In this document: in pieces, positions 5,884-47,297 of the stretch
How positions within the stretch are numbered: the first letter of the stretch is position 1
Layout: each line of letters begins with the position of its first letter
From: Bacteroidales bacterium
Lineage (GTDB): Bacteria; Bacteroidota; Bacteroidia; Bacteroidales; F082
Assembly (NCBI GenBank): GCA_015493215.1
Contig: WGDP01000205.1
Coordinates: 1 to 56,400 of the forward strand
Direction of reading: 5' to 3'
Length of the DNA: 56,400 nt
Notes under the pieces: model-generated
The model's input: only the letters and a program-made list of their open reading frames with translations
Database searches by the model: none
Told to the model about the DNA's origin: nothing
Made by a program: the position numbers and the translations under genes

Positions 5884-6453
5884 ATGAAAAAACAAGTAAT
5901 AACTGCTGCATTGGCAACCCTTTTATTAACAATAGGTTTTTCTATTCAGGCCAATGCACAATCGCAAAAATATGCTTATGTTGACAGCGAATATGTTCTT
6001 GATAACATACCTGAATATCACGATGCTCAGGACGAGTTAAACAGCTGGTCGGAAAAATGGCAGAAAGAAATTGATACCCTTTATTCGCAAATCGACCATC
6101 TTTACAAAAAATATCAGGCCGAAAAAGTATTGTTGCCGGATGATGTTAAAAAGAAAAGAGAAGACGAGATTGTTAAAAAAGAGGGCGAAATGAAAGCTCT
6201 TCAGCAAAAATATTTTGGCCCTCAGGGGGAGTTGTACAAAAAAAGAAAAGAGTTGGTTCAACCCATTCAGGAAAAAGTATATAACGCCATCGAATCGTTG
6301 GCCAAAACCAATAATTACGCTTTTGTGTTTGATAAATCGGGAGGCGTTACCATTCTTTATGCCGCCCCCAAATACGACATTAGCGATGATGTATTGGATG
6401 AAGTGGGCACGGTAATGCAAACAGTAAGACGCGATAGCAGAAAGAAAAAGTAA
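5884..6453 (+). CDS. OmpH/Skp-family periplasmic chaperone
   Basis: Signal peptide followed by a Q/K/E-rich coiled-coil body. The start (QKYAYVDSEYVL) and end (NNYAFVFDKSG) are typical of OmpH, and the gene follows bamA. Confidence 0.8.
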   Translation: MKKQVITAALATLLLTIGFSIQANAQSQKYAYVDSEYVLDNIPEYHDAQDELNSWSEKWQKEIDTLYSQIDHLYKKYQAEKVLLPDDVKKKREDEIVKKEGEMKALQQKYFGPQGELYKKRKELVQPIQEKVYNAIESLAKTNNYAFVFDKSGGVTILYAAPKYDISDDVLDEVGTVMQTVRRDSRKKK

Positions 6454-6598
6454 AAATTTTTTAGTTGTTGAATATTGAAATTGCTGTTTTTTTGGCGATT
6501 TAACATGTTTTAAATTAACACCTATTCTTTTTTTTCTAAATTTGCTGCCTAAAAATCACACAAATAAATTAATTTACAGTAAAATAAGTTTTTTAAAG

Positions 6599-7105
6599 AT
6601 GAAAAAACCATTAGCAATTTTAATCGTAGCCCTTTTAATTTCAGGGATGAGTTTTGGTCAAACAAATGCAAAATTTGGATACATTGATTCCAATAAAATT
6701 TTGACTGAAATGCCTCAAACCGATTCTTTACAAAAAGAATTAAAAAATTATGCCGATTATTTAGATCAGCAAATGCAGACCATGGGGCAGGAATATCAGA
6801 AAAAAGTTCAGGATTATCAGCAAAATGTTGCCGGCATGTCCGACCTCATTCGCCAAACCAAAGAAAAAGAGATAACCGACCTGCAACAACGTATTCAGGC
6901 TTTTCAGGCTTCAGCCGATCAGGATCTTCAGAAAAAACAGCAAGAACTATTTAACCCTGTTATTCAGCAGATTAAAGATGCCATTACAGCAGTTGGTAAA
7001 GAAAACAATTACAATTACATTTTAGATGTAGGTACCGGTGCTGTTGTATTTTATCAGGGTGATGATGTTTTAGGCCTTGTAAAGAAAAAATTGGGCATCA
7101 AGTAA
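6599..7105 (+). CDS. OmpH/Skp-family periplasmic chaperone (second paralog)
   Basis: Signal peptide MKKPLAILIVALLISGMSFGQ, then KFGYIDSNKIL ... NNYNYILDVG with the same architecture as the preceding gene. The start was moved to 6599. Confidence 0.8.
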   Translation: MKKPLAILIVALLISGMSFGQTNAKFGYIDSNKILTEMPQTDSLQKELKNYADYLDQQMQTMGQEYQKKVQDYQQNVAGMSDLIRQTKEKEITDLQQRIQAFQASADQDLQKKQQELFNPVIQQIKDAITAVGKENNYNYILDVGTGAVVFYQGDDVLGLVKKKLGIK

Positions 7106-7125
7106 AATTGCCTTTAAAATCAATT

Positions 7126-7160
7126 AAAAGCCTCACTGTTAAAACAATGAGGCTTTTTTG
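7126..7160 (+). terminator. Rho-independent terminator after the bamA-ompH-ompH unit
   Basis: Stem aaaagcctca / tgaggctttt with a 12-nt loop, followed by a T-run (7154-7159), 21 nt after the ompH stop. Confidence 0.6.
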
Positions 7161-7198
7161 GTTACAAGGGTTTATAACCTCCCTTATAGTTCTACACT

Positions 7199-7328
7199 AA
7201 AGCTTATTCAAATTTCAGATGGTAAAGTTTGTTATCTGTAACTAACCCCGCTCTTTCAGGTTTGTAACCTGAAAGACTAAAAGACTACCAAAGCTTATTC
7301 AAATTTCAGATGGTAAAGTTTGTTATCT
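7199..7328. repeat. Perfect 39-bp direct repeat pair flanking a 10-bp-stem hairpin
   Basis: aaagcttattcaaatttcagatggtaaagtttgttatct occurs at 7199-7237 and again at 7290-7328. The hairpin ctttcaggtt-tgt-aacctgaaag sits between them at 7253-7275. Confidence 0.85.
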
Positions 7329-7401
7329 TTGTATAATAATATTTTATAAAAACAAGGTTATAATGAAAATTGAAAAGGTTTTTTTAATGGTCGTTTTTTG
7401 G

Positions 7402-8421
7402 TCAGCTAAACCTTAGCAACTCCCTTGCAGTTTCGTCCGGATTATCTTTTTTGCGTTCTACCTTAATAATACTTTCAGGGTTGCGTTTTGAAATGCCAAA
7501 TTCGTAGGCTTTGTCGTAATAGCGCAAAGTTAAACCGGCTACTTTTGCAAGCTCATTGTTGTTTAATGCCTCAAGTGCTTCGTTGGCAAACTGTCCGCCA
7601 AGCCTTTCACGAATTTTTTCAATCTGTTCGGCCAGCAGTTGTTTTTCAAAGTTACCATACTCTTTTACAAGCCGCTTTACCCGTTCAGCCTTTGGAATAA
7701 CTACTTTAATAACTGTGGCGTTTCGCATTTGAACAAACAGAGGGTCAGGAATGCCGCAGGTGCCCAGTTGCCGGCTTTCGTCTTCAATCCATATCGGTTT
7801 TGAAAAATCAAATTTCAACCAGGCGTTAGCAAGATTGTTTTCAAACTGCTCGTTGGAGGGTTGTGGGTGCTGTCCCAACGGGCCAAATACCGAACCCTTA
7901 TGGTGCGCAATCCCTTCAATATCCAAAAACTGTTGACCAAGTTTTTCCAGCTCCTTTAAAATAGCCGTTTTACCGCTTCCGGTATAACCGCCGAGCACAA
8001 TAATTTTTGCAGGCCTTGAAAATTGTTCTCTGATGTATCGGCGATAGGCTTTGTATCCGCCATCCAGCACCATGGGTTTAAGCCCTGCAGTTTCAAAAAG
8101 CCAGGCTATGCTGCCTGAGCGCATGCCTCCCCGCCAGCAATGAACCATGATTTTTTTGTCCTTTTTTACCAGTTTTTTTGCCTGTTTCACAAATCCGGCC
8201 ATTTTTGGACCCACATACTCTAATCCAAGTAAAACGGCATTTTCTTTGCCGCCCTGTTTATACCTGATGCCCACCTGTTTTCGCTCTTCGTTATCGAAAA
8301 GAGGAATGTTAACGGCACCGGGAATATGAGCTTTGGCATATTCGGCAGGCGACCGAACATCCACCAACGGCAGGGTGTGGGTCAGGGGCAAAAAATCTTT
8401 AATGGGTAATTTAACAGGCAT
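7402..8421 (-). CDS. selU: tRNA 2-selenouridine(34) synthase
   Basis: N-terminal rhodanese domain with active-site loop HCWRGGMRS, followed by the P-loop GGYTGSGKT. Length (~340 aa) and layout match SelU/MnmH (YbbB). Confidence 0.85.
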   Translation of the reverse strand: MPVKLPIKDFLPLTHTLPLVDVRSPAEYAKAHIPGAVNIPLFDNEERKQVGIRYKQGGKENAVLLGLEYVGPKMAGFVKQAKKLVKKDKKIMVHCWRGGMRSGSIAWLFETAGLKPMVLDGGYKAYRRYIREQFSRPAKIIVLGGYTGSGKTAILKELEKLGQQFLDIEGIAHHKGSVFGPLGQHPQPSNEQFENNLANAWLKFDFSKPIWIEDESRQLGTCGIPDPLFVQMRNATVIKVVIPKAERVKRLVKEYGNFEKQLLAEQIEKIRERLGGQFANEALEALNNNELAKVAGLTLRYYDKAYEFGISKRNPESIIKVERKKDNPDETARELLRFS

Positions 8422-9782: not shown

Positions 9783-10625
9783 TTACAATCCTTTCTCTAT
9801 CCACCTGCCCTCTTTAAAAAACATGATTCTTTTACACCCATATTGCCGTAGTTTTGAAACGGCATAATCAAAAAACAGGTTAATCTCTTCGGGTTGATGA
9901 GCATCCGATGAAACAATAACCGGAATATTTAAATTGATAACCTGTTGCAGGGTTTCTGAATCGGGAAACAGCTTGTTGCTGCGCTTTTTATAAAGTCCGC
10001 GGGTGTTTATTTCAATTATTAAATCTTTTTCCTTTATAAGATGTAAAGTTTCGGAAACAAGCGCCCGGTACCACTTTTCATCTTCGGTAAAATAGCGGTT
10101 TTGATTGTGCATGGTAATTTTGTCAACATGAGCAACCACATCAAACCGCTGGCTCTCCACCATGCCATTTATTTGATGATAGTAGGTGGTTACCGCTTTT
10201 TTAATGTTATTATCAAAGTATTTCTCAACGCCATTATCGTAAATGGTACGGTCGGGGCCATCGGTAAACCAAAGTTCGTCGGTATGGGGCGGCTTTACCA
10301 AATGTACCCCACCAATGGCATAGTCAACTTTGCATGCTTGTTTCCACTGCTCGAACTTTTCCGAAAAACCAGGTATAAAATCCAGTTCCAACGAGCGGTA
10401 AATTGACAATTTGTTGCTGTATTTTTCCTTCAGGCTTTCGATGGTTGCAACATACCGCTCAATATTTTTTTGCTTAAGCGAAAAAGGTGTGTCAAAGGGC
10501 AGAGGCGAATGCTCTGAAAATCCAATAGCCTCAAACCCAAGTTTAACGGCCTGCTGTACATAAGCTTCGGGTTCGGCTTTTCCATCGGAAAAAACGGAAT
10601 GTTGATGAAAATTGAAATTAATCAT
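9783..10625 (-). CDS. PHP-family histidinol-phosphatase (HisJ-like)
   Basis: Metal-ligand pattern of HisJ/PHP phosphoesterases: HQHSVFSDGK at the N-terminus, GFSEHSP, GGVHL and SSDAH near the C-terminus. Confidence 0.75.
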   Translation of the reverse strand: MINFNFHQHSVFSDGKAEPEAYVQQAVKLGFEAIGFSEHSPLPFDTPFSLKQKNIERYVATIESLKEKYSNKLSIYRSLELDFIPGFSEKFEQWKQACKVDYAIGGVHLVKPPHTDELWFTDGPDRTIYDNGVEKYFDNNIKKAVTTYYHQINGMVESQRFDVVAHVDKITMHNQNRYFTEDEKWYRALVSETLHLIKEKDLIIEINTRGLYKKRSNKLFPDSETLQQVINLNIPVIVSSDAHQPEEINLFFDYAVSKLRQYGCKRIMFFKEGRWIEKGL

Positions 10626-10628
10626 TTT

Positions 10629-11354
10629 TTATGCTTTGTATTTAACCGCTGCCATAAATGCAGGTTTACCATCACTTTTTTTAATACCCCGAATGGTGGT
10701 ACCCTCCTCATCTGCTTGTAGAATAACTGTTTCATCCAGATAAGTCTCGTTGAAAAAAGTAATTTGTATCAAATCAATTTCTTTTTCGCCATGAATTTGA
10801 TAAAGGGCATCTTCCATCCAGTTAAAATAACGTCGTGCCGTTGCATGTCCGTTAAGATCCATATCGGAGTGGCGGATAGTAACTGAAAAAAGGTCGCTAA
10901 AATTCCCTTTTCTGTTGGCAACAGGCGGAGTGGCTGTAAAGGCCTTTTCCTGTTGCTCAAATTTTAAAATATGTTCAAACTGATTTAATCTTTTGGGGCG
11001 GCGCGATTGCAGGTCGATAATCAACCATTCGGAGTTGGCAACACACAGGGTGTTTTCCTCTTCATCAAGCATCACAAACTCACGCAACCCTGCCAGTCCG
11101 CTAATACCTGCAGGCCAGGTGGTAAGGGTAATGGATTCATCCCAAACAGGGCGCCGGTTTATTTGGATGTTCATGCGGAAAAGTACCCAGTTGAGGTTGT
11201 TATTTTTCAGCTCTTTATAGCCAAACCCCAGGTTTTCGGCATGCTGAGTGGCTGTATTTATTAATAGCTGCCCCAAACCCGAGAGGCTTAATTTGCCTGA
11301 TACATCGGTGTTTTCCCAATGAACCGACAGGGCTTGTTTCCATGTTGTTTTCAT
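10629..11354 (-). CDS. Acyl-ACP thioesterase
   Basis: About 240 aa double hot-dog layout with two halves, each carrying D.D..GH-like segments (RHSDMDLNGHATARRY). The N-terminal half resembles the FatA/B-type bacterial thioesterase family. Confidence 0.7.
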   Translation of the reverse strand: MKTTWKQALSVHWENTDVSGKLSLSGLGQLLINTATQHAENLGFGYKELKNNNLNWVLFRMNIQINRRPVWDESITLTTWPAGISGLAGLREFVMLDEEENTLCVANSEWLIIDLQSRRPKRLNQFEHILKFEQQEKAFTATPPVANRKGNFSDLFSVTIRHSDMDLNGHATARRYFNWMEDALYQIHGEKEIDLIQITFFNETYLDETVILQADEEGTTIRGIKKSDGKPAFMAAVKYKA

Positions 11355-32969: not shown

Positions 32970-33476
32970 TTACTTCGAAAAAACGTAATCGGTTTCTGCT
33001 CCGGCATGACAGCTGACACATGCACCATTTAATAGTGCTGTCCCTCTCATGTCGTTTCCCTGCTCATCCTTGGCAATGGTGCCGTCGGATGTTAAAACAA
33101 ACCACTCCCAGTCACCACCTTGCGTGTTAAAGCTATTGCCCCGTTTTGCCATGGCGACAATCATGTTTACAGTGCCCTCATCATTTTTCGATTCTTTTAC
33201 AATTACAGCTCCCACCGGGTATGATCCTCCCGAAGCTGCAACATTGTCTTTAAAATAAATGTATCGTGTTACTGTGCTGTCGTTTCCAAAATGAGCTGCT
33301 CCCAACGAAGGGTCGGGGCCAATGTTCTCGGCAACTTTTGTAAACGATTTAAACCCCGTAAATGTTTGATTGTTGGCAATAAACTCCTGTGGAGCTTCCT
33401 CTTCTTTTTTACACGAAGTACTCAATAAAAGCCCCGACAAAAGGAGTGTGAAGGCAAAAAATAATTTCTTATTCAT
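32970..33476 (-). CDS. Cytochrome P460 / cytochrome c'-beta family lipoprotein
   Basis: Lipoprotein signal (LLLSTSC) and a single CXXCH near the C-terminus in the context GGDWEWFVL...NGACVSCHAGAETDYVFSK. This parallels the P460 pattern G.W.F...C..CH....D.VF. VIVKE aligns with the VTVKE segment that carries the Lys cross-link in Nitrosomonas P460. Confidence 0.6.
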   Translation of the reverse strand: MNKKLFFAFTLLLSGLLLSTSCKKEEEAPQEFIANNQTFTGFKSFTKVAENIGPDPSLGAAHFGNDSTVTRYIYFKDNVAASGGSYPVGAVIVKESKNDEGTVNMIVAMAKRGNSFNTQGGDWEWFVLTSDGTIAKDEQGNDMRGTALLNGACVSCHAGAETDYVFSK

Positions 33477-33802: not shown

Positions 33803-35152
33803 ATGAACAACAAAAATCTGCAATTTAACAAGCAAAATGCTATTTTATTAGGACTGGCAGCAATCTTTTTTGCCCTGTTTTTAACCACTGTTTCGGGTTG
33901 TAAACACGACCCCTACATAAACCCCGACACGCCACCCAGCATAAGCAATAACTGTGATGCTGACACTGTTTATTTTCAAAATGTTATTTTACCACTTTTG
34001 GTAACCAATTGTGCCACATCGGGTTGTCACGACAAAAATACGCACAAAGAGGGTGTAATTCTTACTGATTACAGTTCCATAATTAACACCGGAGGCATTA
34101 ACATCACCAACCCTTCCGACAGTAAAATATACCGGCAGTTAAACAAAACTGACGACGACAGGATGCCTCCGCCGCCGGCAAACGCTTTTACCGAATCTCA
34201 AAAAAACAGCCTCCTTACATGGATTGAACAAGGAGCAAAGAACAACGAATGCGTTGAAAATACCGAATGCGACACCTCTAACGTTACCTTTAACGGCAGT
34301 GTTGTTCCCATTTTTGAAAACAACTGCTACGGATGCCACAGCCAACCTACCCCTGCCGGTAACATTGATTTAAAAAATACCGACGATTTGGCTCGCATTG
34401 TCAATAATGGTGCACTGGCCGGTTCGGTATTACATCAGGCAGGTTATTCTCCCATGCCAAAAGGATATAACATGACCCAATGTGAGGTCAGAACCATTGT
34501 TATATGGGCAAACGATACTGTCTTCCCCGGTGGTGGTGGCGGTGGTGGTGGAAACCCCGACCCCTGCGATCCGGATACCACTTATTTTCAAAATACCGTT
34601 TTGCCGTTGTTGGTTTCCAATTGTGCCACTTCGGGATGCCACAATCAGCAATCGCACGAACACGGAGTTATTTTAACCGACTATGCTTCAATTATTCAAA
34701 CAGCGGAGGTAAAACCCGGCGACCCGTCAGGAAGTAAACTGTATAAAGTTCTTTTTGGCGGCGACAAAAGAGACGATGATATAATGCCTCCCCCGCCTGC
34801 CAGCCCGTTTAGTGCTGAACAAAAGCAAATAATTTACGACTGGATAAGCCAGGGAGCATTAAACAACAGTTGCAACAGCGGTTGCGATACATCCACCGTT
34901 ACTTTTTCGGGAACAATTTGGCCGCTTATGCAAACATGGTGTACAGGATGCCACAGCGGAAGCAATGCCGGCGGAAACATTCACATCGAAAATTATAATG
35001 ATGTGGTTGCCATTGCCAACAATGGTAAGCTAATGGGTACGGTTTCCCACGCTCCCGGCTATGTGCCCATGCCTAAAAACGGCGACAAATTTTCGGATTG
35101 TCAAATAGCTGAAATCCGAATCTGGATCGAAAACGGAACACCTAATAATTAA
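33803..35152 (+). CDS. Secreted lipoprotein with four cytochrome-c-like modules (2 x CX4CH, 2 x CXXCH), internally duplicated
   Basis: Lipobox TVSGC and an A-B-(Gly8)-A-B module order. The A module is YFQN.(I/V)LPLLV.NCATSGCH...GVILTDY.SII...MPPPP. The B module is CDTS.VTF.G...P......C.GCHS......GNI....Y.D...I.NNG.L.G.V.H..GY.PMPK. It resembles the planctomycete cytochrome C (PSCyt1-like) domain. Confidence 0.65.
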   Translation: MNNKNLQFNKQNAILLGLAAIFFALFLTTVSGCKHDPYINPDTPPSISNNCDADTVYFQNVILPLLVTNCATSGCHDKNTHKEGVILTDYSSIINTGGINITNPSDSKIYRQLNKTDDDRMPPPPANAFTESQKNSLLTWIEQGAKNNECVENTECDTSNVTFNGSVVPIFENNCYGCHSQPTPAGNIDLKNTDDLARIVNNGALAGSVLHQAGYSPMPKGYNMTQCEVRTIVIWANDTVFPGGGGGGGGNPDPCDPDTTYFQNTVLPLLVSNCATSGCHNQQSHEHGVILTDYASIIQTAEVKPGDPSGSKLYKVLFGGDKRDDDIMPPPPASPFSAEQKQIIYDWISQGALNNSCNSGCDTSTVTFSGTIWPLMQTWCTGCHSGSNAGGNIHIENYNDVVAIANNGKLMGTVSHAPGYVPMPKNGDKFSDCQIAEIRIWIENGTPNN

Positions 35153-37483: not shown

Positions 37484-38119
37484 TTAGCAGCCTCCCGATG
37501 CGGCTTTCTCTTTTTTCTTGCGGCGAACCTTTACTTTTTTTGTGGTTTTAGTACTGGTTTCATTGGCAACAGTTCCCGATTTTTTGGCCACTTCGGCAAA
37601 ATCGTATTTGGCAATGCCTTTTAAACAGGTTTTTTCTGTTTTCTGTAAATTATCTTTGTGTGATGCGTAATAGTTATACCCACCCAGCAGCACAAAAGTA
37701 TTTTCGTATCCTATCTGCCGGAATAACATCCAGGCACCATTGGCCTGCAGTTGGTCGTCGTGATAAAAAACCACTTTAACGCCGCTTTTTTTCCATTGAT
37801 CCATCTGTTTAATGTTATCTTTTTCCAGCAACTTAACGGCTGTAATGTTGATGGATCCGGGAATATGGCCTCTGGCAAAATCAAAATTATTTCTAATGTC
37901 AATTAATACCACTTCTCCCGATTTATCGTTGAGCACCTTTGCCAACTCATAAGGATGAAAACAACCCTTATGGCCTATTACCATATCCACTGTTTGCTGT
38001 GGTGTTAAAGCATATTTAAATCGTGGTTTTTTCATGGTTATCCATCCAAAAACAATAACCAATGCAAAAAGCAAAATGGTAATTAATGTTCGTTTTGGGT
38101 TTCTTTCGTGTACATGCAT
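37484..38119 (-). CDS. Membrane-anchored rhodanese-like protein without canonical active-site Cys; basic C-terminal tail ending SGGC
   Basis: N-terminal TM helix and rhodanese fold markers (VVLIDIRNNFDFARGHIPGSINI ... VVFYHDDQLQANGAW). The catalytic-loop Cys position holds His. The C-terminus is KVRRKKKEKAASGGC*. Confidence 0.7.
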   Translation of the reverse strand: MHVHERNPKRTLITILLFALVIVFGWITMKKPRFKYALTPQQTVDMVIGHKGCFHPYELAKVLNDKSGEVVLIDIRNNFDFARGHIPGSINITAVKLLEKDNIKQMDQWKKSGVKVVFYHDDQLQANGAWMLFRQIGYENTFVLLGGYNYYASHKDNLQKTEKTCLKGIAKYDFAEVAKKSGTVANETSTKTTKKVKVRRKKKEKAASGGC

Positions 38120-38140
38120 AACTAATGTTTTAAAATATGA

Positions 38141-38761
38141 TTAACAACCTCCTGAAGCGGCTTTTTCTTTTTTCTTTCTTCTTACCTTTATCTTGGCTTT
38201 TTTAACACCGGTATCGGTTTTAATGCTGTTTCCTCCGGTAAAGTACATTCCGGCGGCTTTGCGAAACTGATAAGTTTCAAAAGCCGTTTTTGGTGCCGTT
38301 TCAGGAGGTTCAACCGGGTTAATGATGGTTTCTATCCAACAATTAAGGCCACCCTTCATCACATAAATGTTTTTGTAACCAAGCCTGGTTGAAATTACCC
38401 ACGCCTGATCGGACATAATATCATCGTTACTAAAAAATACGGCATTCATATCCTCAATGCCAAGGTTATCCTGGCCTTCCGGTGTAAGGATGTCTTTTAA
38501 CGGAACATTAACGGCATCGGGAAGCGAAAATTTATCGTATTCATCGGCAGGCCGTACATCAATCAACTCAAGGGTAGGGTCGTGTTCGATAATCATTTTT
38601 GCCACCTGATCGGTAGTTACGTACCTAGATGGCTGTGTAATATCAAGCAACAATTTTTCTGGCTTAACTTCATGACTAACCAACTGCTTTTTAGGAACAA
38701 AAAAGGTTCCCAGAGCCAAAAGCAGCATCAAAACGGTAAGAAATATATAATTTTTATTCAT
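38141..38761 (-). CDS. Membrane-anchored/secreted rhodanese-like protein without canonical active-site Cys; identical C-terminal tail ending SGGC
   Basis: N-terminal hydrophobic segment and rhodanese markers (LELIDVRPADEYDKFSLPDAVNVPL ... AVFFSNDDIMSDQAW). The catalytic-loop Cys position holds Ser. The C-terminus is KVRRKKKEKAASGGC*. Confidence 0.7.
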   Translation of the reverse strand: MNKNYIFLTVLMLLLALGTFFVPKKQLVSHEVKPEKLLLDITQPSRYVTTDQVAKMIIEHDPTLELIDVRPADEYDKFSLPDAVNVPLKDILTPEGQDNLGIEDMNAVFFSNDDIMSDQAWVISTRLGYKNIYVMKGGLNCWIETIINPVEPPETAPKTAFETYQFRKAAGMYFTGGNSIKTDTGVKKAKIKVRRKKKEKAASGGC

Positions 38762-39939: not shown

Positions 39940-40881
39940 TCAATATAAATATCTTGTAATCTGGCCTGCTTCAAGAATTACGAACCGGAAAATAAGGCCG
40001 CCCAATAGAATCAGAAATGAAGGTATCCAGACCGGTACATGGTATCCGCGCAGTTCAAAAATTTCGAGGGTAGCCGGAAAAGCCAGCCCCAGCAACACTA
40101 CGAAAACCCAGAAAGTAACGGTAAACTCACCACCCAAAAACAGTTTGGCAGCTTCGTGAGCAGCTTCCGATCCGGCCTGAAATCCCATAATCATGTGGAT
40201 GATAAAAAACAGCTCCACAAAAATAAATATCAGATCGATGCGGGTAAGCACCTTACGTTCGTATTTGCTTTTCGACATCCATATAATGGCTGCCAGTCCG
40301 GTTGAAAACCCGGAAACTAAAAACAGCGGGCCTAAAATGGAAGTATTCCACAATGGGCGGGCGTTAAAGGCCGACAATAAAATACCGGTATAAACACCAA
40401 GTATTACCGACAATATCATCATAATCCAGGCCATAGCCTTACGGTATTTTATCACAAAAGCTTCAAAGGTATCGAGCCAGGCAAAGGGCCATTTCCATTT
40501 CGGGAACACCTCTTTCAAGTAGGAGGCAGCCCAAACAATTGATAACGGAGTAATGGCCATCAACACCCAGGCACCCCACGACATGGGCGACTGAAAACGG
40601 ATAATGGTATAAAGCCTCCAAAAATAAAGTTTATGGTGAAGGTCCAAAAACAGGGCTCCTAAACCAATAACCAGGATAAACGGAACTAACATGGGCGCCC
40701 ATTTAATGGTTGCTTTCATGTCGCGTTCCTTGTGCATTACATAAAAATAGCCGGCAAAAAACAAGATACCTGCTGCGAGGCCACCCAAAAACAGGTAGAG
40801 TGGAATTTCCCACGTCCATAAGTGGAGGTAGGGGTCGATATGTGGAATATTACGTCCGCTGACAAATAATTCTTCTTTCAT
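39940..40881 (-). CDS. psrC: NrfD/PsrC-type polytopic membrane quinol-interacting subunit
   Basis: 313 aa with ~8 TM helices and an N-terminus (W.WEIPLYLFLGGLAAG) characteristic of NrfD-family anchors. It lies directly downstream of the FeS and molybdopterin subunits. Confidence 0.8.
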   Translation of the reverse strand: MKEELFVSGRNIPHIDPYLHLWTWEIPLYLFLGGLAAGILFFAGYFYVMHKERDMKATIKWAPMLVPFILVIGLGALFLDLHHKLYFWRLYTIIRFQSPMSWGAWVLMAITPLSIVWAASYLKEVFPKWKWPFAWLDTFEAFVIKYRKAMAWIMMILSVILGVYTGILLSAFNARPLWNTSILGPLFLVSGFSTGLAAIIWMSKSKYERKVLTRIDLIFIFVELFFIIHMIMGFQAGSEAAHEAAKLFLGGEFTVTFWVFVVLLGLAFPATLEIFELRGYHVPVWIPSFLILLGGLIFRFVILEAGQITRYLY

Positions 40882-40897
40882 TTTCCTGATATTTTAA

Positions 40898-41431
40898 TTA
40901 GGTAAGAAAATATAATTGTGGTTTGGTACCTGCTTCGGGAGCCAATACTTTCCATTTTCTGTTTTTCAATATCTTCGACACATCGCTGTTGGGGTCATCC
41001 AAATCACCAAAATGGAGGCAATGTGTAGGACAAACATCCACACAGGCCGGATTTTCGCCATCGGTAACACGGTGTACACAAAAGGTACATTTATCAACAT
41101 AACCTTCCGGGTGGGGATAACGGGCATCGTAAGGGCACGACTCAATACAGGCACCACAGCCAATACACTCGTCATGGGTTACCAATACGATACCGCCATC
41201 AACAATATGACTGGCGCCCGTGGGGCAGCACCTTACACAGGGAGCGTTTTCGCAATGATTGCATCGCTCCGAACGTAATTCAATTTCCAATTTAGGATAG
41301 GTACCTGCCACGTTTTCCACAATCCAGTCGCGGCAATAGCCGTGGGGTACATTATTTTCGGTTTGACAGGCAACTACACAGTCGCCACATCCGACACATT
41401 TTTTGGTGTCAACCGCCATTGCGTATCTCAT
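40898..41431 (-). CDS. psrB: 4Fe-4S ferredoxin-type electron-transfer subunit (PsrB/PhsB-like)
   Basis: Four Cys clusters (CVGCGDCVVAC, CNHCENAPCVRCCP, CIGCGACIESCP, CTFCVHR...CVDVCP). Its start overlaps the psrA stop by 4 nt. Confidence 0.85.
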   Translation of the reverse strand: MRYAMAVDTKKCVGCGDCVVACQTENNVPHGYCRDWIVENVAGTYPKLEIELRSERCNHCENAPCVRCCPTGASHIVDGGIVLVTHDECIGCGACIESCPYDARYPHPEGYVDKCTFCVHRVTDGENPACVDVCPTHCLHFGDLDDPNSDVSKILKNRKWKVLAPEAGTKPQLYFLT

Positions 41432-43686
41432 GCGTTAACCTCCTTTCCTGGTTTTTCTTTAAGAAATGTAACAAAATTTCCGCGCATTCCGGTGCCGCCC
41501 ATTATTGGATCCATGTGTATTTTACTAACAAGTTTAGAATCGCTGGCACCATGGCCGTAAGCCCGGGTAAGTTTTTTATCGGTATGGCCAAATCCATGCA
41601 CGAGATATACCGAATCCCATCGTATTCGCTCGGTGACTCTGGCTTTTACAGGAAAGTCGGTAACAATTCCATCCTGATTTTTTAACCAAATATATTGGCC
41701 GTTTTCAATATCCCAAAGTTTGGCAACTTTCGGGTTAATCCACACGCTGTTTTCTTTCATCAAATCCCAAAGGTTATGGTTATTTGATGTTCTGGAAAAG
41801 GTGTGCATGGGTGCTCTGCCGTAATTCAGCCTGTAGTAACCGTCAGCAGGCTCTTCATGATGGGTATATTTAGGCATCGGGTCGTATCCCTCCATTTCCA
41901 GCTCGGTAGAATAAAGCTCAATTTTTCCTGTGTTGGTATTAAACTCAAAATCTTCAAGGTTTTGAAGGAAATAGAGGTCATCAAATTCGCGGTTGAATTT
42001 TTTAACCCCGATACGTTTCATCTCCTCCAATGAGGAACCAACTTTTTTCAACTGCCAATCAAGGACATCTTCGTAGTTTTCGTAATTGAAATAATCTCCC
42101 AAACCTAATCTTTTGGCCAATTCTTTTGCAATCCACCAGCCCGGTTTGGTTTCGTGTTTTGGTTCGGCAGCAGGCATTCGCAATGCGATGTATGGTTCCC
42201 GGTGGGGTGACGTACGAATGGGGTCGTAGCGTTCGAGGTAGGTGCATTCGGGAAGCACCACATCAGCCAGTTGAACAATGTCCATGGGCATGGTGTCGAT
42301 AACTACTAAGAAATCGAGATGACTGATGGCTTCCAGTGTTTTTTTCTGATCGGGCAACGAAGCCATCAGGTTGGTGCCATAAACTATCCATCCGCGCAGG
42401 TGGCAATCCAAATCTGCGTTAGGAATGGATGCGTCGCAAATTCCGGTTGACAACACCTCTGTTACAAGTTTATATTTACCGGGAGGATAAGCATCTCTCC
42501 ACGATCTTTTTGGTTTAGGATAAGGTGGTGCCGGGTATTTGGGCAGATGTACCTTTTCAGGGTTATAAAATCCGCCACGACGGCCCCAGGAGCCTAACAG
42601 GGCATTTACAATGGCAATGGCTCTTGACCTTTGGGTATCATCGCCGTACCAGGTAACATGTCTTCCGGGATGCACAAGCACTGCAGGTGATGCAGCGGCC
42701 ATTTCACGAGCTGTTTTGCGGATAACATTGGGGTCGATGGTGGTAATACCGTAGGCCCACTCAGGCGTCATGTTTTTAACATGTTCTTTTAACTCTTTAA
42801 AGCCAAAAGTATATTTTTCAACATAAGCTTTATCATATAAATCTTCGTAAATAATAACATGCATCCAAGCTAACAAGAGAGCAATGTCAGTGGCGGGTTT
42901 AATGGGTAACCAGTATTTTGACTTGCTGGCGGCAGTGCTAAATCGTGGGTCAACGGTAATAATAGTTGCCCCCTGGTCTATGGCCTCCGACATTTCCTGT
43001 ATTTGGCCATTGTGCATATTTTCGCCAATGTGCGAACCAATTAAAACCAGACATTTGGTATCGCGGATATCGGTTCTTTCGGGCGACATAACATCTTCGC
43101 CATAAGTAGCTGTAAAAGCAACCTCGCGAGGTCCGCGGCATTGAGCAAACGAAGGTGCAGTAATGTTGGGTGAACCGTAAGCTTTTACCAGATGGCTAAA
43201 ATGTTTTCCGCCCGTTCCGTGCGAAAACAGTGCTAAACACTCAGGGCCATGTTCTAACCGAAGTTTATTCATTTTTTCAGCAACAAGGTTAAGTGCTTCA
43301 TCCCAGCTTGCTTTCCTGAAATACTGAGTGCCGTCGGCTTTTGTTTCTCTAATCAGAGGCGTTTGCAACCGGTCCTCGTCCCAATACATGCCTACTCCGC
43401 CGGTTCCACGCGGACAGAAGCGGCCGTTGCTGTGTGGGTCATCCTTATTACCAATTATTTTACGAATATTGCCCTTTTTATCTACATAAGTAAAACCTGC
43501 GCACTTCCAAAAGCAAACTTCGCAGAAAGTGGGATAATTGGTAAGCTCCTCATCACTCACAGGTGATGTGTCACCATCGGCAACAAACTGGGCAGTTACA
43601 CTGTCCCAGCTCAGAGCATGTAGGCCAATAGCGGCTGCTCCTACCCCTGCTGCACTAATTTTTATAAAATCCCTTCTTGTTTTCAT
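41428..43686 (-). CDS. psrA: Molybdopterin oxidoreductase catalytic subunit, polysulfide/thiosulfate reductase-like (PsrA/PhsA family), Tat-exported
   Basis: Twin-arginine signal MKTRRDFIKISAAGVGAAA, N-terminal FeS motif CEVCFWKC...C(PRG), and a candidate Mo-ligand Cys in SFAQCRGPR. Size is ~750 aa with a psrABC gene order. Confidence 0.85.
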   Translation of the reverse strand: MKTRRDFIKISAAGVGAAAIGLHALSWDSVTAQFVADGDTSPVSDEELTNYPTFCEVCFWKCAGFTYVDKKGNIRKIIGNKDDPHSNGRFCPRGTGGVGMYWDEDRLQTPLIRETKADGTQYFRKASWDEALNLVAEKMNKLRLEHGPECLALFSHGTGGKHFSHLVKAYGSPNITAPSFAQCRGPREVAFTATYGEDVMSPERTDIRDTKCLVLIGSHIGENMHNGQIQEMSEAIDQGATIITVDPRFSTAASKSKYWLPIKPATDIALLLAWMHVIIYEDLYDKAYVEKYTFGFKELKEHVKNMTPEWAYGITTIDPNVIRKTAREMAAASPAVLVHPGRHVTWYGDDTQRSRAIAIVNALLGSWGRRGGFYNPEKVHLPKYPAPPYPKPKRSWRDAYPPGKYKLVTEVLSTGICDASIPNADLDCHLRGWIVYGTNLMASLPDQKKTLEAISHLDFLVVIDTMPMDIVQLADVVLPECTYLERYDPIRTSPHREPYIALRMPAAEPKHETKPGWWIAKELAKRLGLGDYFNYENYEDVLDWQLKKVGSSLEEMKRIGVKKFNREFDDLYFLQNLEDFEFNTNTGKIELYSTELEMEGYDPMPKYTHHEEPADGYYRLNYGRAPMHTFSRTSNNHNLWDLMKENSVWINPKVAKLWDIENGQYIWLKNQDGIVTDFPVKARVTERIRWDSVYLVHGFGHTDKKLTRAYGHGASDSKLVSKIHMDPIMGGTGMRGNFVTFLKEKPGKEVNA

Positions 43687-44085: not shown

Positions 44086-45615
44086 CTAAACTTGCGCTTT
44101 TTTAAGCTCTTCTTCAGCTAGTTTGCGGTCTGTTTTATCAACAATATACCCTTCAACACCAACTATTTTACCATTTTCCACAACAGGAGTCATGGTAATA
44201 GAATGATATCCAATAGAGCCATCTTTACAGTAGCGACGGGTTATTCCCAAAGGAATGGTTTCGCCTTTCATTACTTTTTCAAACGATTTTTTTAGTTTAA
44301 CAAAGTCTTCTTTGGTACGGCTTAATGAATAATGCTTGCCAATAATTTCATCTTTGGAGTCATATTTATAAAGTCGGAGCCAGGTATCGTTAACTTCCTG
44401 ATAAAAACCCTGACTGTCAATACGGAAATAACCCACATCTTTAGATTTGACAATTTGCTCATAAAACACATTGGATTTGTGCTCTGTTGCAATTTTCTTT
44501 TCAAGGGCTTTTTCGGCTTCTACCTGAGGGGTGATGTCAATAATAAACCCTTCTAATCCTATAATATTTCCATCTTTATCTTTAATAGGTGCAGCTGAAA
44601 CGGTATGATAGCCAATGGTTCCGTCTTTACAAACGCGCTCAACCCTTTCGCCGGTAATTATTTCACCTGAAAGAATCTTATCAACTAATGCGGTTATCTG
44701 TTTTTTGCCTTCGGGGGTTCTGTCAAGCGTTACATCTGTTCCAATAACACTTTTTTTATCGGTACATTTGTAAAGCTTCAGCCAAACTTCGTTAACCTCC
44801 TGATACTTGTGATCTTTACCAATCCGGAAGTATCCCACATTGGAGCTAAGCAGTTTTTCGCGAAGTCGTGTTGATTCGGTGTTGATACCCAGCTTTTCAA
44901 CCACATCATCGAAAGCAGTTTCAAACACGCCCTCTTTTTCTATTGTTCCCCGGCCACTGATACCTTTTCTACTGGTAATTAGGGCAACTTTCAGGTTCTC
45001 TTCCAAAGCAAGTTCCGCATCTTCATCCGACATCTCTTCCCAACCGGTAAGCATTGCTTTGATAGCAGAAAGTGGCCTGTGTCCGGTAGTTGTTAAATAA
45101 ACATGGCCAATAACAAAACCTAACAAAAGAAAGGCTCCAAAAGTATGAAGGTAAGCAACAGGTTGGAGGCTTCCCACAACACTTTGGTCAACCAGCGAAA
45201 CATAATACATGTACACCAAACCGCTAAGCACGACGATTGGAATAATCAATATGCGAAGGCCTAAATAGGTCATGCGCTGTAACGGATTAAACTTATTGTA
45301 AACCGTTTTACGGGTGGGGTGGGGTGCATTACTAAAAATGCCGGTGATATAATACCTGATTTGTGCTTTTAGTAACTTGGTTGACGGAACGTACTGACGC
45401 CACTCGCCGGTTGTCATATTCCAAAACTGTGTAAAAATAATCAGAATGATAAATGACCAGGCCAGATTGCGGTGAATGAAAACTGCTTTTTCATATCCCA
45501 GCAATGTGTAAGTACCATGAACTTCAAAACCGGTAACAGCCAGCAATAAAATCAGCAAGGCCTGTGTCCAGTGCCAGAAACGTTCGTATCCTTTATATAT
45601 TAATACTTTTTTCAT
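44086..45615 (-). CDS. Fusion protein: PhsC/Ni-Fe-hydrogenase-type di-heme cytochrome b (4 TM) plus two tandem PAS domains
   Basis: The N-terminal ~200 aa carry ERFWHWTQALLILLLAVTG, IHRNLAW, NPLQRMTYLG and LHTFGAFLLLGFVIGHVYL (PF01292-like). Two ~120-aa repeats follow, starting VGYFRIGKDHKYQEVNEVWLKLYK and VGYFRIDSQGFYQEVNDTWLRLYK, each ending in a PAS-type ...DG(T/S)IGYH...G.(I/V)(I/V)G(L/V)EG(F/Y)I(I/V)D(I/K)T. Confidence 0.75.
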   Translation of the reverse strand: MKKVLIYKGYERFWHWTQALLILLLAVTGFEVHGTYTLLGYEKAVFIHRNLAWSFIILIIFTQFWNMTTGEWRQYVPSTKLLKAQIRYYITGIFSNAPHPTRKTVYNKFNPLQRMTYLGLRILIIPIVVLSGLVYMYYVSLVDQSVVGSLQPVAYLHTFGAFLLLGFVIGHVYLTTTGHRPLSAIKAMLTGWEEMSDEDAELALEENLKVALITSRKGISGRGTIEKEGVFETAFDDVVEKLGINTESTRLREKLLSSNVGYFRIGKDHKYQEVNEVWLKLYKCTDKKSVIGTDVTLDRTPEGKKQITALVDKILSGEIITGERVERVCKDGTIGYHTVSAAPIKDKDGNIIGLEGFIIDITPQVEAEKALEKKIATEHKSNVFYEQIVKSKDVGYFRIDSQGFYQEVNDTWLRLYKYDSKDEIIGKHYSLSRTKEDFVKLKKSFEKVMKGETIPLGITRRYCKDGSIGYHSITMTPVVENGKIVGVEGYIVDKTDRKLAEEELKKAQV

Positions 45616-45635: not shown

Positions 45636-47297
45636 TTAATGCTTCTTTTTACTGCTTGTAACTCTTAAGAATCCATGAATGCTTACTCCTAATAAAACAA
45701 GAATAAGAAAGATTAAGCCTGCGTTATCGAGCAGTGAACTTTTGTCTCTGCCGGGAAGGTAAAAACCGGTCAGGTTTTTTAACCTGCTGTCGGTGGCGTT
45801 ATGACAGTCGGCACATTCCAAGGCTTTATCTGAAGGCGAAACTTCATGACTCAGAGGCCAGATGGATTCCGTTTTCAGGAAAGAGTATTGTCCGCTAAAA
45901 GGTAAGCCGATATAGTCCATCCCTTTGGTACAGGCAACTTTCCAATTATAATCGGCCCAAAGGGCACCGCTTCCTTTTTCATGGCTGGCGAGCTTAGGTT
46001 GAATCAGGAGCATATTTACCGGGTCATAAGGTTGGGTTCCTCTCATGATTTTCACGGGCCATATTTTAGAGGGATGGTTGGGATCTGCCGGGTTAACATT
46101 ATCCTGATAAGAACCAAACAAAGGATTTAATATCAGCGGGTGAATAGTATCTTTAATTTTATCGTGAAGCAAGTGGTGATCAGCTGTTCCGTTGAACCAC
46201 ACATATTCAGGTTTTACATTTTTTTTAAAAACTGCACCACCATGACGGGAGTCATACTCGATGTCAACATCTTTATAGGTCTTTCCATCGTATGTGTAAG
46301 TGTGTCCGGGTATCTCTTCATCAAATATCGGTTTTCCGTTTTTATCCATTTTGGCAGCCGTGTTCCATGTCCAAATAATTTTGGTATGAAACATTTTCGC
46401 GTAAGTAGGAATATGACACGTTTGGCAAGCGATAGTTTTAAAGTGGTTGTTGAGCAATTCACTTTTATGCGGTTTAGCCGTGTGGCATTCCACACAGGTT
46501 GCTCGGTTGTTCGCGGAAGAAGCAACGGAATAGGCATGTCCCGTGATGTTATGATTTTCTGTTTTGTGACAATCCTGACAACGCATGTTTTTGGCATCTT
46601 TTCCTTTGGAAGCCATGTGGACATCAACATCGCGGGTGCAATTCAACAAGCCCATTTCCAAATCACCGTGTTTTACATTATTACCACCGCCACCAACAAA
46701 ATGGCAACCGCCACAATTATTTTTACGCGGTTGACCCACATGTTGGGCAATATTGTTTAAATCGGTACCCACGGCAGGCAAACCGGCTTTGGGATTGTTG
46801 GAACTTGTACATGGATTTGATTTGTGATAAGTTCCGGTATTATCGTGACAAACCACACAATCGATGTTGTTCTGGTTATGGAAATCAAAATTCTTATCAC
46901 CGTATCCATAGCCCGCGTGACACATGGAGCAGAGATTTTCATTCGAGTTGACTCCAATACAAAAATCATTCAGTAAATTCTTTTTTCCCAGGTTAAACAC
47001 GCCTCTTCCCGGAATAGTATCGCTTTGTTCCCATTTCCAGTGGGGTGTTTTCATAAACTCTTTTCCGCGGCCGTTGTGGCAACTCAGGCATGCTTTGGTC
47101 ATATCCTGAGGTGTTTCAAATTTTTGTTGTAAAACGGCAAATTTAGAGTGATCCACCGGAATGGAATCGTGTTTTAAGCTAATTTCCTTTGACGGGAAAT
47201 AATCCCTGTCCTTATCACCATTGTAGTTAAATACAATCCAAAGAATAATAATCCAGGGAATGATGATGATAAAAATAATTTCAAGTATCTTTTTCAT
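45636..47297 (-). CDS. Octaheme c-type cytochrome (tetrathionate-reductase Otr / multiheme nitrite-hydroxylamine reductase superfamily) with N- and C-terminal TM segments
   Basis: Eight CXXCH motifs (CLSCH, CSMCH, CVVCH, CGGCH, CQDCH, CVECH, CQTCH, CADCH). Seven lie in the first ~300 aa and the eighth lies ~190 aa further on. There are hydrophobic helices at both termini. Confidence 0.8.
   Translation of the reverse strand: MKKILEIIFIIIIPWIIILWIVFNYNGDKDRDYFPSKEISLKHDSIPVDHSKFAVLQQKFETPQDMTKACLSCHNGRGKEFMKTPHWKWEQSDTIPGRGVFNLGKKNLLNDFCIGVNSNENLCSMCHAGYGYGDKNFDFHNQNNIDCVVCHDNTGTYHKSNPCTSSNNPKAGLPAVGTDLNNIAQHVGQPRKNNCGGCHFVGGGGNNVKHGDLEMGLLNCTRDVDVHMASKGKDAKNMRCQDCHKTENHNITGHAYSVASSANNRATCVECHTAKPHKSELLNNHFKTIACQTCHIPTYAKMFHTKIIWTWNTAAKMDKNGKPIFDEEIPGHTYTYDGKTYKDVDIEYDSRHGGAVFKKNVKPEYVWFNGTADHHLLHDKIKDTIHPLILNPLFGSYQDNVNPADPNHPSKIWPVKIMRGTQPYDPVNMLLIQPKLASHEKGSGALWADYNWKVACTKGMDYIGLPFSGQYSFLKTESIWPLSHEVSPSDKALECADCHNATDSRLKNLTGFYLPGRDKSSLLDNAGLIFLILVLLGVSIHGFLRVTSSKKKH

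Follow-up and report, generated by a model that had tools for sequence, protein, structure and literature searches.

Two Cys-less rhodanese-like paralogues with a common C-terminal Gly-Gly-Cys tail in a psr-yeeE gene cluster of a Bacteroidales bacterium

Sud of Wolinella succinogenes is a periplasmic rhodanese-fold protein that binds polysulfide sulfur on a Cys residue and supplies polysulfide reductase (Psr). In the arm of DsrC/TusE and in the C-terminal tail of adenosine 5′-phosphosulfate (APS)/3′-phosphoadenosine 5′-phosphosulfate (PAPS) reductase, a flexible peptide brings its reactive Cys into the active site of a partner, the intermediates formed on this Cys being a persulfide, a trisulfide, or an S-sulfonate. 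In SoxY, the Cys of a C-terminal GGCGG arm covalently carries sulfur intermediates between enzymes (PMC5336275, PMC6067878), and for SoxYZ and SoxT it has been proposed that a periplasmic carrier with a Cys arm passes its sulfur on to a YeeE-like channel (PMC11582611). TsuA and PmpAB have an essential channel Cys, and the half-transporters PmpA and PmpB are proposed to assemble into a heterodimeric channel to which each contributes one essential Cys (PMC11582611). Here we describe two genes, designated rhdA and rhdB, in a 56,400-nucleotide stretch of a Bacteroidales bacterium of the lineage F082 (GenBank assembly GCA_015493215.1, contig WGDP01000205.1, positions 1 to 56,400; hereafter the window). 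Their products are rhodanese-like proteins with an N-terminal membrane anchor, no catalytic Cys, and the same C-terminal tail ending in Gly-Gly-Cys. The two genes belong to a cluster that also encodes a Psr-type reductase and two YeeE/PmpAB-type half-transporters (Table 1). With a probability of roughly 0.55, RhdA and RhdB are dead-rhodanese scaffolds with SoxY-like Cys arms that carry sulfane sulfur between the YeeE channel and PsrA.

RhdA and RhdB resemble SoxY in having one invariant, Gly-flanked Cys at the extreme C-terminus of a flexible peptide, and some of their relatives even end in GGCG. The likeness extends to the probable setting, that is, extracytoplasmic sulfur metabolism, a YeeE-like channel partner, and an arm presented to several partners (PMC5336275, PMC6067878, PMC11582611). 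The motifs are similar but not identical to GGCGG: GGC-COOH is invariant here, GGCG, GGCS, or EGC is found in relatives, and the arm is disordered. In contrast to the β-sandwich of SoxY with its partner SoxZ, the scaffold is a membrane-anchored rhodanese; neither protein gave a Pfam match to the SoxY family signature, and a SoxZ-like gene is absent from the conserved cluster. In place of SoxAX, SoxB, or SoxCD, a Psr-type reductase is the partner, a long charged block precedes the tip, and there are two paralogous carriers with co-varying arms. Sud is a soluble homodimer that lacks a tail and uses the canonical loop Cys, whereas RhdA and RhdB have His120 and Ser111 in the loop and their conserved Cys only at the C-terminus.

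The cluster shares with TsuA/YeeE-TsuB/YeeD and PmpA/PmpB a Sulf_transp channel with one Cys per half and an adjoining Cys-bearing partner (PMC11582611). However, this partner is not TusA- or YeeD-like, as no gene of the cluster matched TusA/YeeD (a TusA fold with an N-terminal CPxP Cys) in Pfam or NCBIfam, and it probably sits on the opposite side of the membrane. At 177 and 200 aa, the halves are also longer than PmpA and PmpB (about 130), and the cluster is fused to a respiratory reductase operon. The DsrC/TusE and APS/PAPS reductase peptides differ in being cytoplasmic, in belonging to other folds, and in lacking a Gly-Gly-Cys-COOH end; DsrC has two Cys in one arm, whereas RhdA and RhdB have two arms with one Cys each. 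As in the N-terminal domain of bovine rhodanese and in Alr3790, the fold is kept and the active-site Cys is replaced, but known inactive rhodanese domains act as regulatory or docking modules, and we found no description of one in which a C-terminal Cys arm compensates for the loss. Three of the elements are known singly, namely the carrier arm, a rhodanese that serves Psr, and a Cys-bearing partner of YeeE. What appears to be new is that they occur together, that the arms are paired and co-vary, and that the Cys has moved out of the loop into the tail. A preliminary description of this locus, made from the sequence alone, had known of no description of such an arrangement for rhodaneses. In the full-text literature (subscription-only papers being outside reach), we found neither a Cys-less rhodanese with a C-terminal Cys arm nor the seven-gene cluster, and to this extent the claim held; in principle, the arms of SoxY and DsrC/TusE are precedents.

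Rhodanese-like domains and shared tail of RhdA and RhdB

Both proteins matched the Pfam Rhodanese family (PF00581) with E values of 3e-17 (RhdA) and 3.1e-14 (RhdB), and a Foldseek search with the RhdB model returned the solved single-domain rhodaneses 3o3w, 3gk5, and YgaP (5hbo) with a probability of 1.00. These matches place both proteins in the rhodanese superfamily with its α/β fold. AlphaFold2 (AF2), run with the family alignments, predicted confident rhodanese cores and N-terminal helices for both proteins, the mean predicted local distance difference test score (pLDDT) of the RhdA model being 79.8. The two domains share 30% identity over 158 residues. Pfam and NCBIfam recognise only the generic rhodanese domain in RhdA and RhdB, and homologues are named 'rhodanese-like domain-containing protein' or 'hypothetical protein' in the databases.

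In a profile alignment, Ser111 of RhdB aligned with the catalytic Cys of yeast YOR285W (FYCASGKRG), and Alr3790 was among the best sequence matches in the same comparison. His120 of RhdA is the equivalent of Ser111, and the consensus of family A at this position is Gly. No sequence in the family alignments A1 and A2 has Cys in this column. Active sulfurtransferases (GlpE, PspE, Sud, and TST) have a loop Cys in the form CX4-5[RT], which neither RhdA nor RhdB has. Despite the absent Cys, Q123, L124, A126, N127, and G128 of the RhdA loop are nearly invariant, as are N112, D113, D114, I115, D118, and Q119 of RhdB, so that each family keeps its own Cys-less loop (DQLQANG in family A and SNDDIxADQ in family B). 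Since these degenerate loops are themselves conserved, the rhodanese domain is not decaying.

The N-terminal helix of RhdA has a mean Kyte-Doolittle hydropathy of 2.73 across the family, and in RhdB M1, N2, Y5, L8, L15, and G18 are invariant. In front of its helix, RhdA carries the motif MHVHE-NP--T, in which H2, H4, N7, P8, and T11 are invariant and M1, V3, and E5 are conserved in at least 90% of 49 diverse sequences. This motif, which is absent from a related MKEL... subfamily, lies across the membrane from the rhodanese domain, and its His-x-His could bind a metal or a partner.

RhdA and RhdB both terminate in KVRRKKKEKAASGGC, followed by the stop codon. Of the 15 codons for this shared peptide (37487-37531 in RhdA and 38144-38188 in RhdB), 8 differ between the genes, by 10 nucleotides in total, and every change is synonymous. 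When 10 substitutions were placed at random in the tail 45-mer, in which 23% of single changes are synonymous, the peptide was kept in none of 200,000 placements. The homologous block comprises 16 residues, with V or I at position −16, and the sequence upstream of it is unrelated. The window contains 257 stop-to-stop frames with a length of 60 aa or more, and of these RhdA and RhdB alone end in GC. Both tails are predicted to be disordered: pLDDT was below 50 at residues 182-194 and 209-211 of RhdA, with block means of 40-53 from residue 181 on, and at residues 181-206 of RhdB. Thus, roughly the last 26-30 residues are without structure in both AF2 models, and an arm of this kind could reach ca. 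100 Å when fully extended. These results bear out the preliminary description, which had seen two diverged rhodanese folds with the loop Cys replaced and a common, flexible 15-residue ending in which 8 codons differ, exactly those it had listed.

Conservation and co-variation of the tail

The tail is present in 103 of 104 RhdA homologues (ending in GGC) and in 120 of 120 RhdB homologues (ending in [SAE]GGC) among the matches listed, the RhdB search having returned 849 homologues. In alignments of 49 diverse RhdA and 43 diverse RhdB members, G-G-C is invariant (G209, G210, and C211 of RhdA; G204, G205, and C206 of RhdB) and the R..K.. block before it nearly so. The terminal Cys was found in 76/76 loci for RhdA and 83/83 for RhdB, while the other Cys residues vary among loci (Cys53 and Cys165 of RhdA; Cys141 of RhdB), and in many homologues it is the sole Cys. 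All 76 tail pairs analysed end in Cys and then a stop, selenocysteine GGU variants having been considered. Two proteins without the tail were noted: one rhdA (L006, 8010-8594) ends in ...SSSVCF after a truncated match, probably owing to a frameshift or an assembly error, and the protein P0104 ends in ...IFIDNRD.

A profile search over 1.84 billion cluster representatives gave 227 matches at E < 1e-30. The 130 single-domain matches are ca. 200-230 aa long, and all have an N-terminal hydrophobic helix; 91 end in GGC and 16 in EGC, and most others in GGCS, GGCG, GGCD, or GGCE. Long multi-rhodanese proteins among the top matches (P0225 and others) were set aside as unrelated repeat proteins without the tail. 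The tail therefore reaches far more distant relatives than the orthologues, and no other Cys is conserved, as the proposal of a relocated Cys in the preliminary description had implied. Its 'polybasic arm', in contrast, fits the window proteins but not the whole family, because the basic block is common without being universal and some members carry a poly-Glu run before G-C, with pairs ending in ...EEEEEEGC. What is constant across the family is the anchor, the Cys-less rhodanese domain, and the Gly-Cys tip.

These endings also bear on a QbsE/ThiS/MoaD-type role, in which the terminal Cys would be cleaved off and the exposed Gly-Gly thiocarboxylated. The preliminary description had offered this as an alternative, and most tails do have Gly-Gly directly before the last residue. 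However, only one Gly precedes the Cys in the 16 of 130 representatives with an EGC end, and others terminate in GGCG or GGCS, indicating that Cys, and not Gly-Gly, is the constant. Moreover, the fold is that of rhodanese and not β-grasp, the clusters examined and their surroundings show neither a conserved E1-like adenylyltransferase nor a conserved JAMM protease, and the predicted extracytoplasmic location would make ATP-dependent activation impossible. We regard this role as highly improbable.

We compared the 13 residues preceding GGC in the two tails of 76 genomes, with 10,000 permutations. RhdA and RhdB tails are 71% identical within a genome versus 46.5% between genomes, a value reached by none of the permutations, and orthologous tails are 46-48% identical between genomes. 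The co-variation is strongest at the variable positions −4, −6, −7, and −8; the within- versus between-genome match is 0.89 versus 0.36 at −4 and 0.83 versus 0.43 at −6. Lineage-specific replacements were made in parallel in both tails in the loci L007 and L011. Where the residues are identical, the codons differ in 59% of cases within a genome and 62% between genomes, indicating that the synonymous sites of the tails are saturated.

Recent gene conversion or chance, leaving a shared tail with no function of its own, has a counterpart in one genome, L050, whose tails (about 10570-10609 and 11230-11269) share 13 consecutive codons with 2 synonymous differences. This looks like the one clear candidate for recent conversion among the 76 genomes. 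On the other hand, no genome of the 76 has one synonymous tail difference or fewer, and the tail is conserved across hundreds of cluster representatives. In the clade of the window, the paralogous tails differ at 12-13 of 16 codons, as compared with a whole-gene orthologous synonymous divergence of 0.41-0.48. Since the tails of one genome have diverged further than orthologous genes, no conversion has occurred in this clade since before its lineages split. Together with the random-placement trials, this refutes conversion or chance as the sole cause in the window and its clade, and for the family as a whole the probability of such an origin is negligible; conversion is retained as a contributor elsewhere, as in L050. 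Purifying selection acts on the tail peptide. The claim of the preliminary description that the tails reflect selection instead of recent conversion accordingly applies to the window and its clade, and needs qualification for the family, in which L050 and the concerted evolution of the tails have to be accommodated.

The tail is a portable module that is kept alike on all its carriers in one cluster. In L087 (370-1735), both partners end in EEEEEEGC after a basic stretch; the charge of the tip is thus reversed relative to the window tails, with the G-C end and the match within the pair kept. The RhdB-like protein of L088 has KKKVKKRKKKEVEGGCG in common with a third protein, the two coding sequences differing at many synonymous sites. 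The third protein (6794-7921) is a 375-aa lipoprotein with two rhodanese domains whose loops are canonical (CHSGQSAS and CFTGQNAA), and the position of RhdA is occupied by this protein and a second lipoprotein of 209 aa without the tail (6140-6769). As the tails of one cluster are alike despite saturation, a shared recognition partner is the best explanation, with occasional conversion as a helper.

The same features have to be weighed for a tail that serves as a docking or membrane-association signal, with its Cys modified (by acylation, for example) or acting as a structural ligand, and carries no substrate. Eukaryotic lipidated tails likewise combine a polybasic stretch with a Cys at the C-terminus. 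The net charge is near +7 over the last 20 residues, whereas the RhdB core averages −8.4, and the tail is portable between scaffolds. However, lipid binding cannot be the conserved function, because poly-Glu replaces the basic block while G-C stays constant. An N-terminal anchor is already present, and no modifying enzyme is conserved beside the cluster. We consider a docking signal of this kind decidedly unlikely.

The psr-yeeE-rhd cluster and the role proposed for the arms

The genes psrA-psrB-psrC-yeeE1-yeeE2-rhdB-rhdA lie in this order on one strand of the window with gaps of a few bases. A locus scan with one genome per species returned 80 loci, and the same seven genes were found in the same order in every locus long enough to show it; the linkage to the YeeE halves and PsrABC, for which the preliminary description had suggested tabulating gene neighbourhoods, is thus strict. 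The loci are from Bacteroidales, namely Lentimicrobiaceae and Prolixibacteraceae (including the cultured Maribellus mangrovi and M. maritimus, and Draconibacterium), and from 'Chlorobiota' metagenome-assembled genomes (MAGs) and one Neomarinimicrobiota MAG. More distant family members (the MKEL... and GGCG types) are in the same cluster, and the carriers come from sulfidic and sediment habitats.

PsrA matched Psr of Thermus thermophilus (2VPW) over its full length with an E value of 1e-199; its best NCBIfam match was PhsA, below the cut-off of that model. With a molybdenum-bis(pyranopterin guanine dinucleotide) subunit, a four-cluster ferredoxin, and an NrfD anchor, the cluster encodes a PsrABC-type complex, whose substrate might be polysulfide, thiosulfate, or a selenium species. 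Both neighbouring yeeE genes encode Sulf_transp halves with a channel Cys each, as in YeeE/PmpAB: in 84/84 loci, the 200-aa half has a single Cys108 (GGFCPGT, codon 39045-39047) and the 177-aa half a single Cys138 (GRGCTSG, codon 39509-39511). A PDB sequence search gave no detectable match for these halves. With one invariant Cys per YeeE half and one per arm, the accessory genes form a module with four invariant Cys residues.

The same mechanism could in principle handle selenium (selenite or selenide), with the arm Cys forming selenotrisulfide-type adducts. The YeeE halves weakly match the YedE selenium-transporter models of NCBIfam, and in srr, the one respiratory selenite reductase operon known, a Psr-like enzyme is accompanied by proteins with rhodanese domains (PMC12481199). 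However, the YedE matches are far below the cut-off (27.6 versus 200 bits), and PsrA is a full-length match to the Thermus enzyme, as given above. No selenium-utilisation gene was found in the cluster or in the scanned flanking open reading frames (ORFs), and the habitats of the carriers are sulfidic ones and sediments. A selenium-handling cluster is very unlikely in our judgement.

The rhodanese domains of RhdA and RhdB are quite probably periplasmic. Their N-termini resemble signal anchors, the part comprising the transmembrane segment and the rhodanese domain weakly matches the N-terminus of the DsbD-like protein TsoB (NCBIfam), and the N-terminus of PsrA (residues 3-21) has a twin-arginine-type match to Pfam TAT_signal, at 19.8 bits below the gathering cut-off of 22.7. 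In L088 and L089, tailed relatives have lipoprotein signal peptides (LSSC|D and ILSC|A) in place of the anchor; the presence of the tail on lipoprotein rhodaneses in other clusters indicates a portable, extracytoplasmic module.

The presence of the tail in orthologues, the absence of another conserved Cys, the predicted disorder, and the strict linkage lead us to a relocated sulfur-carrier Cys as the best reading, and we infer persulfide chemistry from it. RhdA and RhdB would be catalytically dead rhodanese-fold scaffolds, each tethered in the cytoplasmic membrane by its N-terminal helix and most likely facing the periplasm. Each scaffold would bear a disordered C-terminal arm of ca. 30 residues ending in [VI]x[VI]x-R-[KR]-K-K-x4-[SAE]-G-G-Cys-COOH, with the terminal thiol as the working group that holds sulfane sulfur covalently as a persulfide or polysulfide. 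The arm would swing this sulfur, in one direction or the other, between the two invariant Cys residues of the split, PmpAB-like YeeE channel and the substrate funnel of PsrA. It would thereby present sulfur in the manner of the GGCGG arm of SoxY, and the two proteins would be to PsrA what Sud is to the Psr of Wolinella, with the reactive Cys shifted from loop to tail. Gly-Gly may provide a slim, flexible tip, the charged block may dock the arm or stabilise the anionic sulfur chain, and the rhodanese core with its conserved Cys-less loop may serve in docking or substrate binding.

Several observations weigh against this carrier. Psr funnels and YeeE vestibules are described as positively charged, a property to which a polybasic arm is not obviously suited. 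In the AF2 monomers, neither tail was folded back on the acidic loop, both being disordered, so that no docking was seen. Counts of K+R on the N- versus C-flank of the helix are ambiguous under the positive-inside rule (2.0 versus 2.7 for family A and 1.0 versus 2.7 for family B) and say less about the topology than the lipoprotein variants of L088 and L089, and a tail of net +7 is unusual for an exported segment. Finally, the concerted evolution of the tails could stem in part from episodic gene conversion, as in L050, instead of a shared partner.

The terminal Cys might instead be a redox thiol that forms a reversible inter-arm disulfide or exchanges with the YeeE Cys residues or PsrA, acting as a relay or gate in a DsbD/TsoB-like logic. 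Two tails of equal length with one Cys each that co-vary within a genome, the single invariant Cys per YeeE half, and the weak NCBIfam match to the N-terminal part of TsoB, a rhodanese/DsbD-like selenoprotein, are consistent with this. However, no thioredoxin-fold or DsbD-like partner was found in the clusters examined, the setting is that of a sulfur-compound reductase and a sulfur channel, and the Gly-Gly-Cys end is the sulfur-carrier signature of SoxY (PMC6067878). We judge a purely redox role to be quite unlikely; it is not fully exclusive of the sulfur carrier, as a trisulfide bridge would satisfy both.

Such a bridge is the core of a further, tentative and on balance unlikely variant, in which RhdA and RhdB form a heterodimer that holds a sulfur chain between the two terminal Cys residues (Cys-S-Sn-S-Cys), and this protein-bound tri- or polysulfide is the true substrate of the Psr-type enzyme. 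If so, the pair would be a periplasmic counterpart of the DsrC-trisulfide/DsrMKJOP principle that is loaded or unloaded through the two-Cys split YeeE, and the tail of each lineage would co-evolve with the enzyme funnel that it enters.

Polysulfide or thiosulfate respiration by Bacteroidota and Ignavibacteria-like bacteria of sediments is inferred from psr genes alone. With sulfur carriage as proposed here, the cluster would add a defined delivery module for insoluble or labile sulfur, consisting of two Cys-tipped arms and a two-Cys channel. A 'dead' rhodanese can apparently regain a reactive Cys elsewhere, and caution is due where annotation pipelines take the loop Cys as their one criterion of sulfurtransferase activity. 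That the two tails co-vary although their synonymous sites are saturated provides an unusually clean natural experiment for mapping the partner surface that recognises the arm, and the cultured Maribellus carriers make genetics feasible.

Neighbouring genes and other features of the window

The positions of the features are summarised in Table 1. Scans of the window for sigma-70 promoters and terminators gave only background levels, and an Rfam scan of it gave no match.

Table 1 Features of the psr-yeeE-rhd cluster in the window and of a gene pair adjoining psrA in other loci.
Feature	Position	Strand	Remark
rhdA: 211-aa membrane-anchored Cys-less rhodanese-like protein, C-terminal GGC tail	37484..38119	(-)	ORF
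RhdA tail, last 16 codons (V, then KVRRKKKEKAASGGC)	37487..37534	(-)	Cys211 codon 37487-37489
RhdA degenerate active-site loop VVFYHDDQLQANG	37736..37774	(-)	His120 (codon 37760-37762) at catalytic Cys position
RhdA N-terminal transmembrane helix, residues 8-30	38030..38098	(-)	AF2 helix
RhdA N-terminal motif MHVHE-NP--T, residues 1-11	38087..38119	(-)	conservation, 49 diverse sequences
rhdB: 206-aa membrane-anchored Cys-less rhodanese-like paralogue of RhdA, same tail	38141..38761	(-)	ORF
RhdB tail, last 16 codons (I, then KVRRKKKEKAASGGC)	38144..38191	(-)	Cys206 codon 38144-38146
RhdB degenerate active-site loop AVFFSNDDIMSDQ	38405..38443	(-)	Ser111 (codon 38429-38431) at catalytic Cys position
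RhdB N-terminal hydrophobic helix, residues 3-20; signal anchor or signal peptide	38702..38755	(-)	AF2 helix
YeeE/PmpAB-type half-transporter, 200 aa	38766..39368	(-)	Pfam Sulf_transp, profile positions 4-160 of 310
YeeE/PmpAB-type half-transporter, 177 aa	39389..39922	(-)	Pfam Sulf_transp, profile positions 176-308 of 310
psrC: NrfD-type membrane quinol-interacting subunit	39940..40881	(-)	Pfam NrfD, E 3.5e-44
psrB: four-cluster ferredoxin subunit	40898..41431	(-)	Pfam Fer4_11, NCBIfam NrfC/ArrB/DsrO-like
psrA: putatively Tat (twin-arginine translocation)-exported molybdopterin catalytic subunit	41428..43686	(-)	full-length match 2VPW
Rieske + cytochrome b/c fusion pair	L001 825-3915; L084 1120-4282; L085 1098-4208; L086 960-4248		

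In several genomes, psrA is adjoined by a divergent gene pair for a Rieske protein and a fusion of cytochrome b with a multihaem cytochrome c of ca. 900 aa, which suggests a specific quinol-oxidising chain with the Psr-type complex wired into it. This pair is absent from the window. Directly upstream of psrA in the window are two genes on the (-) strand, at 44086-45615 and 45636-47297. Their products are, respectively, a fusion of two or three PAS domains with a membrane domain of the cytochrome b561 type, and a multihaem cytochrome c of 553 aa with Cytochrome_cB and c7 matches. The two may be a redox-sensing or electron-transfer pair linked to the operon.

Haem proteins are also encoded on the other side of the cluster. 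The 449-aa product of a gene at 33803-35152 (+) has several haem motifs of the form CxxCH and gave PSCyt1 and cbb3-type matches; it is an internal duplication, a run of eight glycines linking its two similar halves. The next genes encode a single-haem paralogue of 123 aa, a YceI-like protein, and a DUF5777 β-barrel, and a cytochrome P460 gene is located at 32970-33476.

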